Below, one piece after another: positions 1 to 5,354 of a stretch of 5,354 nt of DNA (the first letter of the stretch is position 1; the number at the start of each line of letters is the position of its first letter). Source of the DNA: a virus (taxonomy: Duplodnaviria; Heunggongvirae; Uroviricota; Caudoviricetes); the IMG/VR virus record IMGVR_UViG_2740892006_000002, one strand, 5' to 3'. A program made the translations under genes and the position numbers. Under the pieces are notes generated by a model. It was not told the origin of the DNA, made no database searches, and saw only the letters and a list, made by a program, of their open reading frames with translations.

Positions 1-807
1 ATGGGTTCATGTGCAGCTCCATCAGCAAAAAGGGATGATAAGTTTATCACCACCGACTATTTGCAACAGTGCCCGTTTGCCTTAGGGAAAACAGGAAGCA
101 CCGTTGCGAATGATAAAGCAGTTGGATGGAACTGGAGTAGCGGAGCCTATAACGCAACTATTAGTGGTGCATCAACGTTAATTATTCATTTTTATATGGG
201 AGAAGGAAGTTGTCCTGCAGCTCAGTTTCGGATTAATTATAAAAATGGCGGTATTTTTTATCGTTCAGCCCGTGATGGTTATGGTTTTGAAGCCGACTGG
301 TCCGAATTTTACACCACCACCAGAAAACCTTCAGCAGGAGATGTTGGTGCACTGCCGTTATCTGGTGGTCAACTGAATGGTGCACTGGGTATCGGAACAT
401 CCAGTGCTCTTGGCGGTAATTCGATTGTATTGGGTGATAATGACACGGGCTTTAAACAAAATGGCGATGGTAATCTGGATGTTTATGCTAATAACGTCCA
501 TGTTATGCGCTTTGTCTCCGGAAGCATTCAAAGTAATAAAACCATAAATATTACAGGGCGTGTTAACCCCTCGGATTACGGTAACTTTGATTCCCGTTAT
601 GTGAAAGATGTTCGACTTGGTTCACAGCAATATTATGGAGTGAACAACTGGCGAACATGGAATTTCCAGTGCCCTTCAGGTCATGTATTGTCTGGTATTA
701 ATGTTCAGGATACAGGGTCTAACTCTGCCGATAATATAGCGGGTGTTTATTACAGACCCGTTCAAAAGTATATAAATGGCACCTGGTATAATGTAGCGAG
801 CGTTTAA
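1..807 (+). CDS. Phage tail fiber protein, C-terminal variable portion (5'-partial; ORF open to the window edge)
   Basis: Frame is open from position 1 to TAA at 805-807. Gly/Asn/Ser-rich composition typical of fiber tips. Shares the motif ALGGNSI(V/T)LGDNDTG(F/I)KQxGDG and the C-terminal tip motif QKYI(N/S)G(T/N)WYNV with the minus-strand fiber ORF. Its stop overlaps the start of the downstream tfa (TAAtATG), as in stf-tfa operons. Confidence 0.85.
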
Positions 808-808
808 T

Positions 809-1342
809 ATGATGCACTTAAAGAACATAAAAGCGGGTAATGCTAAAACACTGGAACAGTATGAGTTAACAAAGAAACACGGAGTTATCTGGCTTTACTC
901 TGAGGACGGAAAAAACTGGTATGAGGAAGTGAAAAACTTTCAGCCAGACACCATAAAGATTGTTTACGATGAAAATAATATTATTGTTGCCATAACCAAA
1001 GATGCCTCCACACTTAACCCTGAAGGTTATAGCGTCGTTGAGATTCCTGATATTACCGCCAACCGGCGTGCTGACGACTCAGGTAAATGGATGTTTAAAG
1101 ATGGCGCAGTCATTAAACGTGTATATACCGAAGAAGAGTTGCGCCTACAGACGGAAAACCAGAAAAAAATATTATTACAGCAGGCCAGAGAAAAAACGCA
1201 GTTCTGGCAAACACAGCTTACTTTGGGGATTATCACTGATTCAGACAGACAGCAACTGATGAACTGGATGCGATACGTGCAACAGGTTGAGACAACTGAT
1301 ACCTCGGTTCTTCCTGTAACATTCCCGGAACCACCAGAATAA
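809..1342 (+). CDS. tfa: Tail fiber assembly protein (Tfa family chaperone)
   Basis: 177 aa starting [11 protein letters not shown]...[23 protein letters not shown]...ITANRRAD, which is the conserved N-terminal half of enterobacterial Tfa proteins. Start codon lies 1 nt after the fiber stop. The N-terminal ~95 residues are highly similar to the minus-strand paralog at 1373-1900, and the C-terminus diverges. Confidence 0.9.
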
Positions 1343-1343
1343 G

Positions 1344-1368
1344 AAAAGGCCCGTACGGGCCTTAATTT
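1344..1368. terminator. Candidate bidirectional hairpin between the convergent tfa genes
   Basis: AAGGCCC-GTAC-GGGCCTT (7-bp GC-rich stem 1346-1352 / 1357-1363, 4-nt loop) lies between the tfa stop (1340-1342) and the tfa' stop (1373-1375). Flanking T/A runs are short, so efficiency is uncertain. Confidence 0.45.
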
Positions 1369-1372
1369 GTTG

Positions 1373-1900
1373 TTATTCTGGTTTCTGTGGCCATTCAGGC
1401 TTTGCAGTATCCACATGGCTGACCATAACGCTGTAGCGTTCCCATGATTCCAGTCGTGTGCGTTCCTCATCAGTTGCCATATTCAGTCTGACAGCACGTT
1501 CCAGCGGTTGAATCACAGACTCCGCTTCGGAAAGCAAAGCGGCTTTTTGTAACTCTGCCTGCTGTTGCAGTTCCTGTTTTGTATATTCCCGCTTTACTAC
1601 TTTACCATCCAGAAACTTCCAGTTTCCCGAGATATCGGCGCGACGGTTGGCTGTTATATTCGGTAACTCAACAACACTTAACCCGTCAGGGTTAAGTGTT
1701 GATACGTCTTTCTCAATACAACGAATAATCCCCTTCTGGTCATAAGCTATTTTTAAAGTATCATCCTGAAAGTTTTTTAATTCGTCATACCAGTTTTTAC
1801 CGTCTTCTGTATATAGCCAGATAACGCCAGCTTTTTTCGTAAGCTGATACTGCTCAATGGTTTTGGGGTTTCCGGCGGTAATATTTTTCAGATGTTGCAT
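1373..1900 (-). CDS. tfa: Tail fiber assembly protein, alternative cassette (Tfa')
   Basis: 175 aa starting [36 protein letters not shown]...ITANRRAD. An AGGAGA Shine-Dalgarno sits about 7 nt upstream of the ATG (reverse complement of 1904-1909). The C-terminal tail ...[15 protein letters not shown]...PEWP resembles the lambda-Tfa-type C-terminus seen again at 4116-4385. Confidence 0.9.
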
Positions 1901-1915
1901 ATATTCTCCTGATGG

Positions 1916-2884
1916 CTATGCCTGTTCAACGTTATACCAGTTACCAGAAATGTATTTTTGTAGTGGTCGTGACACCATCCAGTCATCTCCATCAACCTCA
2001 CCAATAATTTGCAATCCTGTTGTCACATGACCATTACCTGGTTCGCAAAGTCCTCCGCGATATAATGTGTCAGAACGTCTGCCTCCCAGACGCACATTTC
2101 TGATAAAAGAACTATTCAGGTAATCATTTAAGTTTGACCCCCAGCACCCACCAAATATATTTCCATCGGTGTTATAACGGACGCCACCCGCAATAAGAGC
2201 ACCCGGTGAAATAAAGGATTTATCGTTCGGGTTAAACTGCCATAAAGCATCATTACCGCCATCGCCACGCATATGAATACATGGAACCGGAAATCCATAC
2301 TGTTCTGTCAGTAAATACCCAAAGCTGACCGCGCCGGGATAGCCCTGTCCATTGCGAATGGACAAGCCCTTAACTATCGGCACGTAAAGACCACCAGGAG
2401 TGGGATTCCAGGCAAACTGCGTCTGAACAAAAGGCGCGGTGGCATTATTCAACTGGTCTGCAAATGCGCCACTTCCATCAGGAATTATTCCCTGATGAAT
2501 ATATGCAACCCGCTTATAAAAATCAGCAGATGCGGGTTGAAGCCCAAATGCCAGTTGTCCATTTGAATAGAATAAAAGGACACCGTCGCCGCCCTGTTTA
2601 ATACCAGTGTCGTTATCTCCGAGAGTAATGGAATTACCGCCCAGTGCGTTATCTGTACCAAGCGCCAGCCCACCATCAATTTTGGCCCCGTGGCTGACAG
2701 ATATAGCACCTGTTCTCAGATTTATAGCGAATGGCCTTAATGGGCCGATATCACCGTTTTCGCCTTGTCCTTCAGCCGTCGGAATGAAATGAAGAAAATC
2801 TTCTGAACGACGGAAAATAAGACCGAAGGCATCATTGAAAATTCGCAGCGCATTCACCGTGCCAATTTTCAGTTCTCCGGTCAT
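1916..2884 (-). CDS. Alternative tail fiber variable segment (Sv'-like cassette); frame stays open upstream to about 2947 through the crossover site
   Basis: 322-aa ORF with the same glycine-rich motif (ALGGNSITLGDNDTGIKQGGDG) and C-terminal QKYISGNWYNV tip as the + strand fiber. It is followed 16 nt downstream by tfa' with its own SD. My translation upstream of the first ATG stays in frame (…NLGLQETVNKAGNAVQRSGDK-MTGELKIG) across 2930-2955, as expected for a promoterless cassette that becomes fused to a constant fiber part after inversion. Confidence 0.85.
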   Translation of the reverse strand: MTGELKIGTVNALRIFNDAFGLIFRRSEDFLHFIPTAEGQGENGDIGPLRPFAINLRTGAISVSHGAKIDGGLALGTDNALGGNSITLGDNDTGIKQGGDGVLLFYSNGQLAFGLQPASADFYKRVAYIHQGIIPDGSGAFADQLNNATAPFVQTQFAWNPTPGGLYVPIVKGLSIRNGQGYPGAVSFGYLLTEQYGFPVPCIHMRGDGGNDALWQFNPNDKSFISPGALIAGGVRYNTDGNIFGGCWGSNLNDYLNSSFIRNVRLGGRRSDTLYRGGLCEPGNGHVTTGLQIIGEVDGDDWMVSRPLQKYISGNWYNVEQA

Positions 2885-2929
2885 TTTATCGCCGGAACGC
2901 TGAACGGCGTTACCAGCCTTGTTTACCGT

Positions 2930-2955
2930 TTCCTGTAAACCGAGGTTTTAGATAA
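2930..2955. other. Gin/Pin/Cin/Hin-type inversion crossover site (pix/gix-like), right end of the invertible segment
   Basis: TTCCTGTAAACC-GA-GGTTTTAGATAA: 26 bp made of two imperfect 12-bp inverted half-sites around a central GA, closely matching the recalled gix/cix/pix consensus. It lies between the 5' end of the silent fiber cassette and the invertase start (3010), which is the canonical position. Confidence 0.7.
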
Positions 2956-3009
2956 TGGCGGTTTCTGGCCTGCATGGCATGATTTGTGCTTTTGGACGGG
3001 AGATTCAGC

Positions 3010-3252
3010 GTGCTGATTGGCTATGTAAGGGTATCAACAAATGACCAGAATACAGATCTGCAACGAAACGCTCTTGTTTGTGCAGGATATGAACAAATAT
3101 TTGAAGATAAATTAAGCGGAACAAGGACAGGCCGACCTGGATTAAAACGTGCTTTAAAGCGCCTTCAAAAAGGTGACGCACTGGTTGTCTGAAAACTGGA
3201 CTGACTGGTTCACTGTATGCGGCATCTTGTCGTGCTGGTGGTGGAAGCCTAG
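3010..3252 (+). pseudogene. pin: Serine DNA invertase (Pin/Gin/Hin family), truncated and decayed
   Basis: GTG start at 3010 with GGGAGA SD 6 nt upstream. The first 60 codons (VLIGYVRVSTNDQNTDLQRNALVCAGYEQIFEDKLSGTRTGRPGLKRALKRLQKGDALVV) match the invertase N-terminus, including the catalytic Ser in YVRVSTNDQ. TGA at 3190-3192 replaces the expected Trp of VVWKLDRLGRS, followed by in-frame stops at 3202-3204 and 3250-3252 and several substitutions (*KLD*LVHCMRHLVVLVVEA*). The whole C-terminal catalytic/HTH portion is missing; the frame runs into a tfa 3' end. Confidence 0.85.
3025..3100. promoter_or_regulatory. Candidate Fis-dependent recombinational enhancer retained inside the invertase 5' remnant
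   Basis: In Hin/Gin/Cin systems the enhancer lies within the first ~100 bp of the invertase coding sequence with two Fis sites roughly 48 bp apart. Two G-N13-C 15-mers with AT-rich centres occur here at 3031-3045 (GTATCAACAAATGAC) and 3080-3094 (GTGCAGGATATGAAC), centres 49 bp apart. Assigned by eye only. Confidence 0.3.
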
Positions 3253-3385
3253 AAAAAGTATCGGGTGTTACTGAACCGTGTTGATACATCAACTGCACCT
3301 GATATTGAGTGGCCTACGAACCCTGTCAGGGAGTAATCATTGGGATTATGCCGCAGCACGTCTTAAGCAAGAACGTGCTGCGGTT
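3244..3385 (+). repeat. Direct repeat copy A (tfa 3' end plus hairpin), fused in frame to the invertase remnant
   Basis: About 140 bp, roughly 90% identical to 4293-4436 at a constant 1049-bp offset. Encodes [29 protein letters not shown] (stop 3334-3336), then a perfect 11-bp-stem hairpin CCGCAGCACGT-(11 nt)-ACGTGCTGCGG at 3351-3383. Confidence 0.8.
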
Positions 3386-3399
3386 GGATGCTATTTTTT
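3351..3399 (+). terminator. Hairpin plus T-run downstream of the tfa-like 3' end (candidate intrinsic terminator)
   Basis: Perfect 11-bp stem at 3351-3361 / 3373-3383, then TTTTTT at 3394-3399. The T-run is about 10 nt from the stem and also encodes the last Lys codons of the minus-strand methyltransferase, so terminator function is uncertain. Confidence 0.3.
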
Positions 3400-4059
3400 C
3401 CCTGAAGCGGAAAACATTACTACAGTACCTTGAACCTTGGTTTTAACATTCTCGAAATGCTCTGAGAGTATATGTGTTAAGCCTTCTTCGGAATCTTTTG
3501 TGTTTGAAAAGATGCCTTTCTGATTGTAAATGCGCATCAGTTTTTGACCGAAGCTATTGTGCACAACGCCGTCACCAAGAATTGTGGCTCCGTATAGAGT
3601 TCCATCGTCAGTTAAGGCCTGCGCCGCATTGCGTATTACACAGCTTTTTGTAGATATATTTCCAGGCAGGCAGTGAAGAAGGTAAAACATGGAAATGGAA
3701 TCAAATTGACCATGTAACGCCGCGGGATAAGGTTCAAAAACATCATGGCTAATTTTATGTTTAATTTTTGATTCCCCAGCCCTTGTAGATGCCGCGTTCA
3801 GGCTAGCTTCGTTCAAATCCATTAAAGATATCAGACTACTCTCAGGTACGTGAGTAAGGTAAAACCCAGTTCCAACACCAATATCCAGATGGTTGTTACC
3901 TACATGTTCCAGAAAGTGTGGAAGAAGGTGTTCCTTTGTAGGACATCCCCATGCAAGCCGATTTGATACTCCCAAAACCCACCAGTCATAAAGCTTTAGG
4001 GTAAGTGGTGTGTAAATTTTAGCCCCATCATCTGTGTTTTTTTTCATTGATTTCACCAT
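3391..4059 (-). CDS. Class I SAM-dependent methyltransferase (prophage moron)
   Basis: 222-aa ORF with a Rossmann-fold motif I, HLDIGVGTGFY, followed by an acidic residue after the next strand (LISLMDLNE) and a later FDSISMFYLLHCLP segment. No DPPY/NPPY-type amino-MTase motif. An alternative start at the second ATG (4047-4045; MKKNTDD...) is preceded by a GGTGA SD-like sequence. Confidence 0.85.
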   Translation of the reverse strand: MVKSMKKNTDDGAKIYTPLTLKLYDWWVLGVSNRLAWGCPTKEHLLPHFLEHVGNNHLDIGVGTGFYLTHVPESSLISLMDLNEASLNAASTRAGESKIKHKISHDVFEPYPAALHGQFDSISMFYLLHCLPGNISTKSCVIRNAAQALTDDGTLYGATILGDGVVHNSFGQKLMRIYNQKGIFSNTKDSEEGLTHILSEHFENVKTKVQGTVVMFSASGKK

Positions 4060-4088
4060 GTTATAGTTTTATTTGTGAATTAAATCAA
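4060..4088 (-). promoter_or_regulatory. Candidate sigma70 promoter for the methyltransferase
   Basis: On the minus strand: TTGATT (4088-4083), a 17-nt spacer, then TATAAC (4065-4060). The -10 abuts the first ATG (4059-4057), which would imply transcription starting at or after that codon and translation from the second ATG. Judged by eye, weak. Confidence 0.25.
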
Positions 4089-4115
4089 TTATGGCGATGA
4101 ATTACAAGGGGTTAA

Positions 4116-4385
4116 ATGCTGCCGCAGCATAGCGATATTGAAATAGCCTGGTATGCTTCGATACAGCAGGAGCCGAATGGCTGGAAGACCGTCACCACAC
4201 AGTTCTACATCCAGGAATTCAGTGAGTATATTGCGCCACTGCAGGATGCTGTAGATCTGGAAATCGCAACGGAGGAAGAAAGATCGTTGCTGGAGGCATG
4301 GAATAAATATCGGGTATTGTTGAATCGTGTTGATACATCAACTGCACCTGATATTGAGTGGCCTGCAAATCCTGTCAGGGAGTAA
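4116..4385 (+). pseudogene. tfa: Tail fiber assembly protein, C-terminal fragment (lambda Tfa-like), N-terminal half missing
   Basis: The 89-aa ORF ends ...[54 protein letters not shown], closely resembling the C-terminus of lambda Tfa as I recall it. There is no conserved Tfa N-terminal region; an AAGGGG SD sits about 5 nt upstream of the ATG at 4116. The 3' part is repeat copy B. Confidence 0.7.
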
Positions 4386-4436
4386 TCATTGGGATTATGC
4401 CGCAGACACGTCGTATGCAGGAACGTGCTGCGGTTA
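4293..4436 (+). repeat. Direct repeat copy B (tfa 3' end plus hairpin)
   Basis: Matches 3244-3385 at a +1049 offset (+1050 after a 1-nt insertion in the hairpin arm). The W codon TGG at 4299-4301 corresponds to TAG at 3250-3252 in copy A. The hairpin here is imperfect (CCGCAGACACGT...ACGTGCTGCGG). Confidence 0.8.
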
Positions 4437-4499
4437 GTTTGTGAGCTTTCGATAGTGGTTGTTATTTTTGCCCTTATTTGTTCCGGAGGCCATGGTTCA

Positions 4500-4670
4500 A
4501 TGGTCCGTCTGCCCCCTGTGGTGATGTCAGCAAAATCAGCCACTGCGCGAACCACAATAGCCCGGGAAGATGCTGAAGATCACCAGGTAAAGCTGTCAGC
4601 GCAGAAACTGGAAGAACTGCTCGCATCAATGGTTAAGGATGAGGTTGATCGCAATGATGGGATTTATTGA
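4500..4670 (+). CDS. Hypothetical small protein (56 aa); uncertain
   Basis: In-frame ATG at 4500 with GGAGG (4485-4489) about 10 nt upstream, giving MVRLPPVVMSAKSATARTTIAREDAEDHQVKLSAQKLEELLASMVKDEVDRNDGIY. The ORF-track start at 4389 lies inside repeat B and is unlikely. No family recognised. Confidence 0.25.
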   Translation: MVRLPPVVMSAKSATARTTIAREDAEDHQVKLSAQKLEELLASMVKDEVDRNDGIY

Positions 4671-4765
4671 CGTCAGCGAGAGCAGAAGGAAGAACTGAAT
4701 AACCTGAATGATTTACGCTCAATCAGAGCGATGGCGATTAGCGGCAATCACGCTCGATAAAATTA

Positions 4766-4790
4766 ACCCCGGTGATCATCCGGGGTTTTG
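4766..4790. terminator. Bidirectional intrinsic terminator between the small + ORF and the convergent Rha-family gene
   Basis: ACCCCGG-TGATCAT-CCGGGGT stem-loop (4766-4786) followed by TTTT on the + strand, and by a T-rich stretch (TTAATTTTAT) on the minus strand. It lies just downstream of the minus-strand stop at 4797-4799. Confidence 0.6.
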
Positions 4791-4796
4791 CATTCA

Positions 4797-5354
4797 TTAA
4801 AACCGCATCAACCTTTCCACCAATTGTTCTTTACGGGCAACGATCCACCCATGTTGCTCCAGATAAAATTTAAACCGTTCCAGCGTGCATACCATCGCAT
4901 CGGCGGGGACTTTTTCTGTGAACTCGACCTGACCGTGTTTATCGAAGTGGATCAGTAATGCGCATCCATTATTTGGGGCGGGGGAGTTTTGTGCTGCAGG
5001 AGGACGTTTGTGGAGTTCTTCTTCCATTGCGTTAAATTTTTCAATGTAAGCTTCTTTTAGTCTGGCTGCTTTTTTGCCAGTAAATCCCATTACGAGGAAC
5101 ATGAAGCCGTCTTTTGTGATCAGGTAGCATCGTGATTCACGTTCTGCGCCGTTGCCAATTTCGACAGTCTGAACATCGGCCGAAAAGTTGGCTGATGTAA
5201 ATTCGGGAGAGCAGTCGAGTGTGTCAATCTTAGCTAAAACGTGTTTATGTTGTTTATCGAAGTAGTCGGCAACAGCTTGAGAGGTGGTAACCAGGCGACC
5301 ATCTTTGAAAAAGACTTTTGGTGACTCGTTAGAAAAAGTTATAGCTGTATTCAT
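4797..5354 (-). CDS. Rha-family phage regulatory protein (antirepressor-like N-terminal domain) with an uncharacterised C-terminal domain
   Basis: 185 aa; the N-terminal region (...VTTSQAVADYFDKQHKHVLAKIDTLDCSPEF...YLITKDGFMFLVMGFTGKKAARLKEAYIEKFNAMEE) matches the pRha-domain pattern as I recall it. The start codon is at the window edge (5352-5354), so upstream signals cannot be seen. Confidence 0.7.
   Translation of the reverse strand: MNTAITFSNESPKVFFKDGRLVTTSQAVADYFDKQHKHVLAKIDTLDCSPEFTSANFSADVQTVEIGNGAERESRCYLITKDGFMFLVMGFTGKKAARLKEAYIEKFNAMEEELHKRPPAAQNSPAPNNGCALLIHFDKHGQVEFTEKVPADAMVCTLERFKFYLEQHGWIVARKEQLVERLMRF

Follow-up and report, generated by a model that had tools for sequence, protein, structure and literature searches.

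A putative orphaned recombinational enhancer in the truncated invertase gene of prophage Phi4 of Escherichia coli ST131

How can a segment of prophage DNA go on inverting when the invertase gene next to it is dead? The question is raised by the tail-fibre end of a prophage of E. coli ST131, where a gin/pin-type invertase gene has been reduced to a stub. Every invertase gene of the Gin/Cin/Pin/Hin type bears an enhancer of inversion (sis) at its 5′ end, and the initial annotation of this DNA had proposed that the stub may retain it and may still act in cis. From our analysis of the window (the whole stretch of 5,354 nucleotides), we consider it likely that bases 3028-3099 are an orphaned, sequence-intact Fis-dependent enhancer at which a Gin-like invertase supplied in trans, together with Fis, the binding of which is predicted, inverts the Phi4 segment. 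Such an enhancer would probably explain why the tail-fibre segment continues to be flipped in ST131 by the invertase of another prophage.

The Phi4 locus and its truncated invertase gene

Bases 74-5354 of the window are 99.9% identical to the chromosome of the ST131 strain JJ1886 (NC_022648.1, 1488422-1493702), and to many other ST131 genomes; apart from an IS26 end, only seven bases differ from JJ1886. This is where the tail-fibre end of a lambdoid prophage adjoins ompW and trp; the prophage was named Phi4 in strain EC958 (Forde et al. 2014, PMC4134206). The window begins with two opposed sets of a tail-fibre C-terminal cassette and its assembly gene, followed by a crossover site, the invertase stub, a tfa fragment, a gene for a SAM-dependent methyltransferase, more tfa fragments and a Rha-family gene (Table 1). 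Alternative C-terminal cassettes that oppose each other, each with its assembly gene, are what characterizes a segment of the Gin/Cin/Pin type. In JJ1886 the segment extends from 211 bp to the left of window base 74 up to window base 2943, and the inverted partner of the crossover site, situated beyond the window, reads TTATCGAATACC-TC-GGTTTACGAGAA. In strain NCTC86, the silent half of a Phi4-type segment (bases 7253-8787 of locus L090) is a near-identical match to a portion of the invertible segment carried by the P2-like EC958 prophage Phi1 (locus L004), and thus tail-fibre cassettes have moved between unrelated prophages.

There is no functional serine invertase gene adjacent to the segment. 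The stub, recorded in RefSeq as a partial recombinase pseudogene in both JJ1886 and EC958, reads normally through codon 61; it then meets two stops, the second of which falls within a heavily substituted patch where D*LVHC replaces DRLGRS, and only codons 1 to about 78 remain, everything beyond being deleted. The initial annotation had described a 5′ part that survives intact while the rest of the gene has decayed. The first half of that description holds for the enhancer interval, which is almost unchanged, whereas the second has to be amended: the invertase homology ends at about base 3245, at a fusion to a tfa fragment, so that the 3′ two-thirds of the gene were deleted and did not decay.

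Two other observations concern the sequence around this fusion. The patch (3201-3214) has eight in-frame changes in 14 nt when compared with e14 pinE, between flanks that are near-identical, and has the appearance of a short tract that was converted or replaced, not of random decay. Further downstream, the direct repeat given in Table 1, both copies of which are tfa C-terminal fragments, brackets the methyltransferase gene (class I SAM-dependent; 3391-4059, minus strand), which looks like cargo inserted or kept between duplicated tfa ends.

The truncation did not arise within ST131. The same crossover site, stub, patch and tfa junction are present, with Trp62 intact, in a Rac-type prophage of strain ECJXMCRH7 (NZ_CP067342.1; bases 4516-5601 of locus L087), which has an intact pinR on the opposite strand about 220 bp downstream of the stub and only half an invertible segment at its left, beside trkG. 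Moreover, the stub allele of the window (3057T, 3089A, 3192A) is common to ST131, NCTC86 and AR_0069, the last two having it at the ompW locus. The truncation is therefore older than ST131.

The window differs from the reference genomes by its IS26 end, located within the invertible segment at 211 bp from the position of the left crossover site of JJ1886, where it breaks up the variable portion of the tail-fibre gene. The insertion is absent from EC958 and JJ1886, and the IS26/tail-fibre junction was found in none of the complete E. coli genomes of the collection searched. Through this insertion the tail-fibre cassette that is expressed has been disrupted in the window's strain, and the left crossover site may have been lost or become unlinked, so that the tail-fibre switch may no longer matter there; to this extent the window itself speaks against use of the enhancer. 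In contrast, the reference ST131 genomes have at Phi4 the full known cis set, i.e. two 26-bp crossover sites and the enhancer.

Table 1. Features of the window relevant to inversion of the Phi4 segment (Fis scores are rule-based and serve for ranking only)
Feature	Position	Strand	Sequence, score or basis
IS26-family element, terminal 73 bases	1-73	-	100% match to 'IS6-like element IS26 family transposase' in at least 5000 plasmid records; JJ1886 homology begins at 74
Invertible segment, part inside the window	74-2929		ORFs and JJ1886 annotation
Variable tail-fibre end	74-807	+	
tfa	809-1342	+	
Alternative tfa	1373-1900	-	
Alternative variable tail-fibre end	1916-2929 (ORF 1916-2884)	-	
Right 26-bp crossover site	2930-2955		TTCCTGTAAACC-GA-GGTTTTAGATAA; one base off the Mu right G-segment site
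gin/pin-type invertase remnant	3010-3245	+	GTG start at 3010; premature TGA at 3190-3192 (Trp to stop); second stop at 3202-3204; alignment to Gin, Pin, Cin, Hin and the Phi1 and Phi2 invertases
15-mer of the initial annotation	3031-3045 (centre 3038)		GTATCAACAAATGAC; score 1.25, about the 39th percentile
Proximal Fis core (predicted)	3032-3046 (centre 3039)		TATCAACAAATGACC; score 6.0, top 2% of the window; pyrimidine-purine steps at 3-4 in both half-sites
Distal Fis core (predicted)	3080-3094 (centre 3087)		GTGCAGGATATGAAC; score 8.5, rank 6 of 5338 positions
Core pair	3039/3087		spacing 48 bp; score 14.5, rank 2 of 5290
Third Fis-like 15-mer	3103-3117		GAAGATAAATTAAGC; score 9.0, the highest of the region; identical in Mu gin and Phi1, weak in hin (3.25)
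tfa C-terminal fragment fused to the stub	3246-3356	+	direct repeat 3239-3356 / 4288-4405 (118 nt, 89% identity); same junction in the ECJXMCRH7 Rac prophage

The enhancer interval and its predicted Fis cores

In the invertase coding sequence, bases 3028-3099 are equivalent to nt 19-90; the initial annotation had singled out nearly the same interval (3025-3100). In the P1 record (NC_005856), the feature 'enhancer of Cin-mediated C-segment inversion' is annotated at 31678-31749, i.e. precisely at nt 19-90 of cin. The 5′ end of the stub was compared, in an in-frame alignment, with those of Mu gin, P1 cin, e14 pinE, a Salmonella hin and the intact invertase genes of the EC958 prophages Phi1 and Phi2. 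The interval aligns without a gap with its six counterparts, nt 19-112 being devoid of indels in all seven genes, and the spacing between the cores is thus unbroken. Over nt 19-90, 70 of the 72 bases of the stub are identical to those of Mu gin and also to those of the intact Phi1 gene; the differences are at 3057 and 3089. The proposal that the enhancer interval is kept in the 5′ end of the dead gene, at the expected place and at the expected distance from the crossover site, is in this respect borne out.

Neither difference seems likely to harm the enhancer. The C to T change at 3057 lies between the cores, and T is the majority base there in intact genes. The G to A change at 3089, at position +2 of the distal core, converts a conserved Cys codon into a Tyr codon and renders the core centre more AT-rich. 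Every base of the stub except 3089A occurs among 62 unique Hin-family sequences from intact genes placed in a single codon register. That 3089A is never found in intact genes is a point against use of the enhancer, but its absence from the 62 sequences is explained by the loss of the Cys codon that it causes, and according to the published Fis rules the change should be neutral or favourable. The retained enhancer is very probably usable.

For the Fis cores we used ad hoc rules drawn from the determinants in Hancock et al. 2016 (PMC4784862), and no calibrated matrix, so that the scores are a ranking aid only. The rules concern the half-sites (G at position 7; pyrimidine-purine step at 3-4; no C/T at 3; no A at 4; no purine at 8) and require an AT-rich centre. 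The initial annotation relied on a simpler signature: two G-N13-C 15-mers, 49 bp apart and at the expected place. Both exist, have centres 49 bp apart and lie in the enhancer interval, but the motif as such carries no information, because it is about as frequent as base composition predicts: the window contains 274 such 15-mers against about 263 expected, or roughly one per 20 nt, and eight of them begin within 2995-3119. The second of the two, at 3080-3094, coincides with the distal core, but the first is probably one base out of register, as judged from homology and the Fis rules. Read at 3031-3045, it violates the rules for positions 3 and 4 in both half-sites, and we rejected this register; shifted by one base, it becomes one of the better positions of the window and sets the spacing at 48 bp instead of 49 bp. 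Scoring of the region, carried out with these rules in place of the weight matrix that had been suggested, consequently favours the pair centred at 3039 and 3087 and disfavours the register centred at 3038 (Table 1). The Fis scores of the stub are at least equal to those of functional enhancers.

Scores of this kind have to be read with the density of Fis-like sequences in mind, since 15 positions between 2990 and 3130 score at least 4. The best-scoring 15-mer of the region, GAAGATAAATTAAGC, is located 23 bp past the distal core, outside the interval annotated in P1, and its status is uncertain. What raises the identification of the enhancer above chance is homology, not the motif. The proximal core is identical in Mu gin and homologous in position to TGTCAACAATTGACC of hin; the distal core is homologous to GTGCAAATTGTGACC of hin and to GTGCAGGATGTGAAC of Mu gin. 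The two hin cores are themselves 48 bp apart. The hin enhancer has been described as having '47 bp between their centers' (PMC3798978), a figure which, in our own reading, fits 48 bp if the intervening base pairs were counted.

The position of the cores relative to the crossover site is conserved as well. From the centre of the right crossover site, the distance is 96.5 bp to the proximal core centre and 144.5 bp to the distal one. Mu, e14 and Phi1 all share the first of these values with the stub; the corresponding distance in hin is 106.5 bp, in line with the location of the hin enhancer at about 100 bp from hixL (PMC3798978). In sequence and position, the stub has attributes expected of a sis enhancer: location at nt 19-90, two predicted cores 48 bp apart, homology to an experimentally defined enhancer, and a place in cis whose distance from the closest site is about 90 bp or more. 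It is also the single enhancer copy in the 17-kb Phi4 locus of JJ1886. Taken together, the sequence features make it likely that the stub acts as a cis enhancer.

Inversion without a local invertase

The segment is inverted in nature. EC958 differs from JJ1886 by the reverse-complementation of bases 5788-8870 of the locus, with no mismatch over 6000 nt, and between the two strains the half-site differences re-assort exactly at the central dinucleotide. To assess how widespread the two orientations are, we built a synthetic 'flipped' junction, in which the JJ1886 segment is inverted exactly at the central dinucleotides, and compared it with the window's own orientation in complete genomes at a query coverage of at least 80%. 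The flipped junction was matched in 374 complete genomes, EC958 among them, and 40 out of 40 among the matches listed were 100% identical over 800 nt. The window's orientation was matched in 144 complete genomes at the same coverage, and both full-length matches among those listed were 100% identical. Both queries carry the same stub sequence. As genome counts do not measure rates, these figures indicate the presence of both orientations and not how often inversion takes place. Isolates that, from their names alone, appear to belong to the same series also differ in orientation (4/0 versus 4/1-1 and 4/4; U12A versus U13A to U15A).

Inversion in culture has already been reported: both Phi4 orientations were found in one EC958 culture and assembled as separate contigs, the Phi4 invertase was noted to be severely truncated, and the Phi1 invertase was proposed to act in trans (Forde et al. 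2014, PMC4134206). A preprint describes PCR-confirmed switching in ST131 bone isolates for two prophages, one of which is listed without an invertase gene. With a dead invertase gene beside it, the segment can invert only through an enzyme supplied in trans, and the idea, present in the initial annotation, that the segment stays invertible by such an enzyme agrees with all these data.

One genome, NZ_CP082831.1 (SCAID WND1-2021), contains the locus in both orientations, at 2244427-2249707 and 4765747-4766546. Either the locus is truly duplicated there, or a contig with the alternative orientation has been joined to the chromosome in error, which Forde et al. 2014 (PMC4134206) warn can happen.

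An origin of the two orientations in RecA-dependent homologous recombination between short inverted repeats is extremely improbable. The crossover sites do lie inside an inverted repeat that could serve for this purpose, but the repeat is imperfect, being only 32 nt long and 84% complementary, and the exchange occurs in its 13-bp identical centre, where the half-sites re-assort as predicted for cleavage at the central dinucleotide. Furthermore, the sites match the gix/cix/pix consensus, and the two orientations coexist in one culture (PMC4134206). With repeats that are too short and an exchange that is exactly central, we rejected this explanation.

The sequence of events that we propose follows the known systems. 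A Gin-like invertase made elsewhere would bind both crossover sites; in ST131 the P2-like prophage Phi1 would be its most likely source. Two Fis dimers would occupy the cores at 3032-3046 and 3080-3094, and the three sites would then assemble as an invertasome on supercoiled DNA, as in Mu. Fis would activate cleavage at the central dinucleotide, and subunit rotation would invert the 3.1-kb segment and thereby swap the C-terminal tail-fibre cassette together with its assembly gene.

Would such an enzyme need the enhancer of the stub? EC958 possesses two intact invertases, in Phi1 and Phi2, and this existence of two candidate enzymes counts to some degree against the explanation that we prefer. 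The Phi1 invertase differs from Mu Gin by one residue in the first 120 and keeps His106 and Met114, which we take to be the positions where Gin mutations confer Fis independence. The Gln/Arg/Leu residues matching those that contact Fis in Hin (PMC3798978) are likewise conserved in this enzyme. Its own enhancer is about 0.5 Mb from Phi4 on the chromosome. Being wild-type at the presumed Fis-independence positions and having conserved the Fis-contact residues, the Phi1 invertase should need a Fis-bound enhancer in cis, and we infer that Phi4 inversion would depend on the one in the stub.

Another possibility is that the enhancer sequence is a functionless coding relic, left at the end of a deletion, and that a trans invertase flips the segment without it or by means of other Fis sites nearby. 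Substrates that lack an enhancer still invert, at a low rate, which is an argument against the need for the stub. Several features would fit with a relic: the same stub and fusion occur in the Rac prophage close to an intact pinR, which would carry its own enhancer, and there the left half of the segment has been replaced; two of the three derived substitutions fall within the enhancer interval; and, as shown above, Fis-like 15-mers are common in the region. On the other hand, the Phi1 invertase looks wild-type where Fis independence would presumably arise, and the spacing of the cores as well as the distance to the crossover site have been kept exactly. Wild-type Gin, Cin and Hin require a cis enhancer for efficient inversion (PMC3798978), and efficient is what the reaction seems to be, since both orientations were abundant enough to form separate contigs from one culture (PMC4134206). 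We therefore regard the relic explanation as unlikely and retain use of the stub's enhancer by a trans-acting invertase as the best explanation.

Persistence of the stub and comparison with known systems

Use of the enhancer, even if real, would not imply that it was kept for this purpose. The initial annotation suggested that the stub persists because it still functions in cis, and for this we found no support: the same stub and junction exist near an intact pinR in a Rac-type prophage, and two out of three derived substitutions are in the enhancer. Most likely, the stub survived because of where the deletion ended and not by selection. It could nevertheless be supposed that selection maintains the Phi4 switch as a non-autonomous invertible cassette reliant on a helper, in which the enzyme was lost, the full cis set was kept, and the invertase of a P2-like prophage drives the host-range switch of a lambdoid one. 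The sharing of one stub allele by ST131, NCTC86 and AR_0069 would be in keeping with this, as would the plausibly harmless nature of both enhancer substitutions, one giving the majority base and the other a more AT-rich core centre. However, when substitutions were polarized with Mu, Phi1 and the ECJXMCRH7 stub over window bases 3010-3200, those derived in the lineage were not depleted in the enhancer (two in its 72 nt versus one in the 119 nt outside; Fisher p = 0.56), a comparison which, with three changes and very close lineages, has almost no power. The prophage is, moreover, degraded in places, with an IS21-family element in lom of JJ1886 and IS26 in the tail-fibre gene of the window. A further argument comes from the pinH pseudogene of K-12 MG1655 (bases 9066-9305 of locus L088), which consists of about codons 42-95, from the middle of an invertase gene, fused to a fragment of an IS3-like transposase. 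We considered it as a possible second enhancer-retaining stub and discarded it, for it has no 5′ end, no enhancer and no adjacent invertible segment; invertase remnants, then, do not always keep their 5′ end. Altogether, a selected cassette appears quite improbable to us.

If it were nonetheless true, the Phi4 switch would be for inversion what a non-autonomous transposon is for transposition, with cross-talk and exchange of cassettes between prophages. The preferred explanation, an enhancer that is used but was left by chance of the deletion end point, has consequences of its own. It offers a concrete and testable reason for the published, unexplained inversion of Phi4 in the pandemic ST131 clone. 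Should the stub enhancer be required, orphan invertible segments could be sorted from their sequence into those that can be flipped in trans and those that cannot, and the interpretation of long-read assemblies, with their orientation differences and spurious contigs, would benefit from such sorting. Moreover, a non-coding role would then have been shown for the remnant of a pseudogene.

Comparison with the systems already described places these proposals in perspective. The closest is Phi4 of EC958 itself, as described by Forde et al. 2014 (PMC4134206) for this very locus, with crossover sites at 1484784-1484809 and 1487865-1487890, a truncated invertase and inversion in culture. The main text of that description does not contain the word 'enhancer', has one word-start match to 'Fis', and does not propose an enhancer role for the stub. 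Within the literature that we searched, the coverage of which is incomplete, we found no previous suggestion that inversion in trans uses an enhancer contributed by the stub of a truncated invertase gene. Inversion of Phi4 in trans is thus real and already published; the link with the stub enhancer is new as far as the searched literature goes, yet a specialist would expect it.

The Salmonella hin enhancer is similar in having two cores with a 48-bp spacing, set in homologous codons and separated by AT-rich stretches. It differs by one extra codon, by its 106.5 bp to the crossover site, and by its role: the segment under its control bears a promoter and serves flagellar phase variation, and does not consist of tail-fibre cassettes. 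With the P1 cin enhancer, the stub shares the nt 19-90 interval and a nearly identical proximal core (TATCAACAAATGAAC in cin compared with TATCAACAAATGACC). The orientation is not the same: cin points towards the C segment, which puts its enhancer at about 500 bp from cixL, versus about 100 bp here, and the divergence is greater in the sequence between the cores and on either side of them.

The best match is the sis enhancer of Mu gin (Kahmann et al. 1985, as cited in PMC3798978), which has in common with the stub 70 of the 72 bases over nt 19-90, both core registers and the 96.5 bp to a crossover site that is itself only one base different. What distinguishes Phi4 from Mu is that its gene is dead, truncated at about codon 78, that it has the 3089 G to A change in the distal core and the 3057 C to T change between the cores, and that its enzyme must come from elsewhere. 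The known working of the Hin, Gin and Cin enhancers is left unchanged by all this: Phi4 provides a useful explanation rather than a new kind of system.
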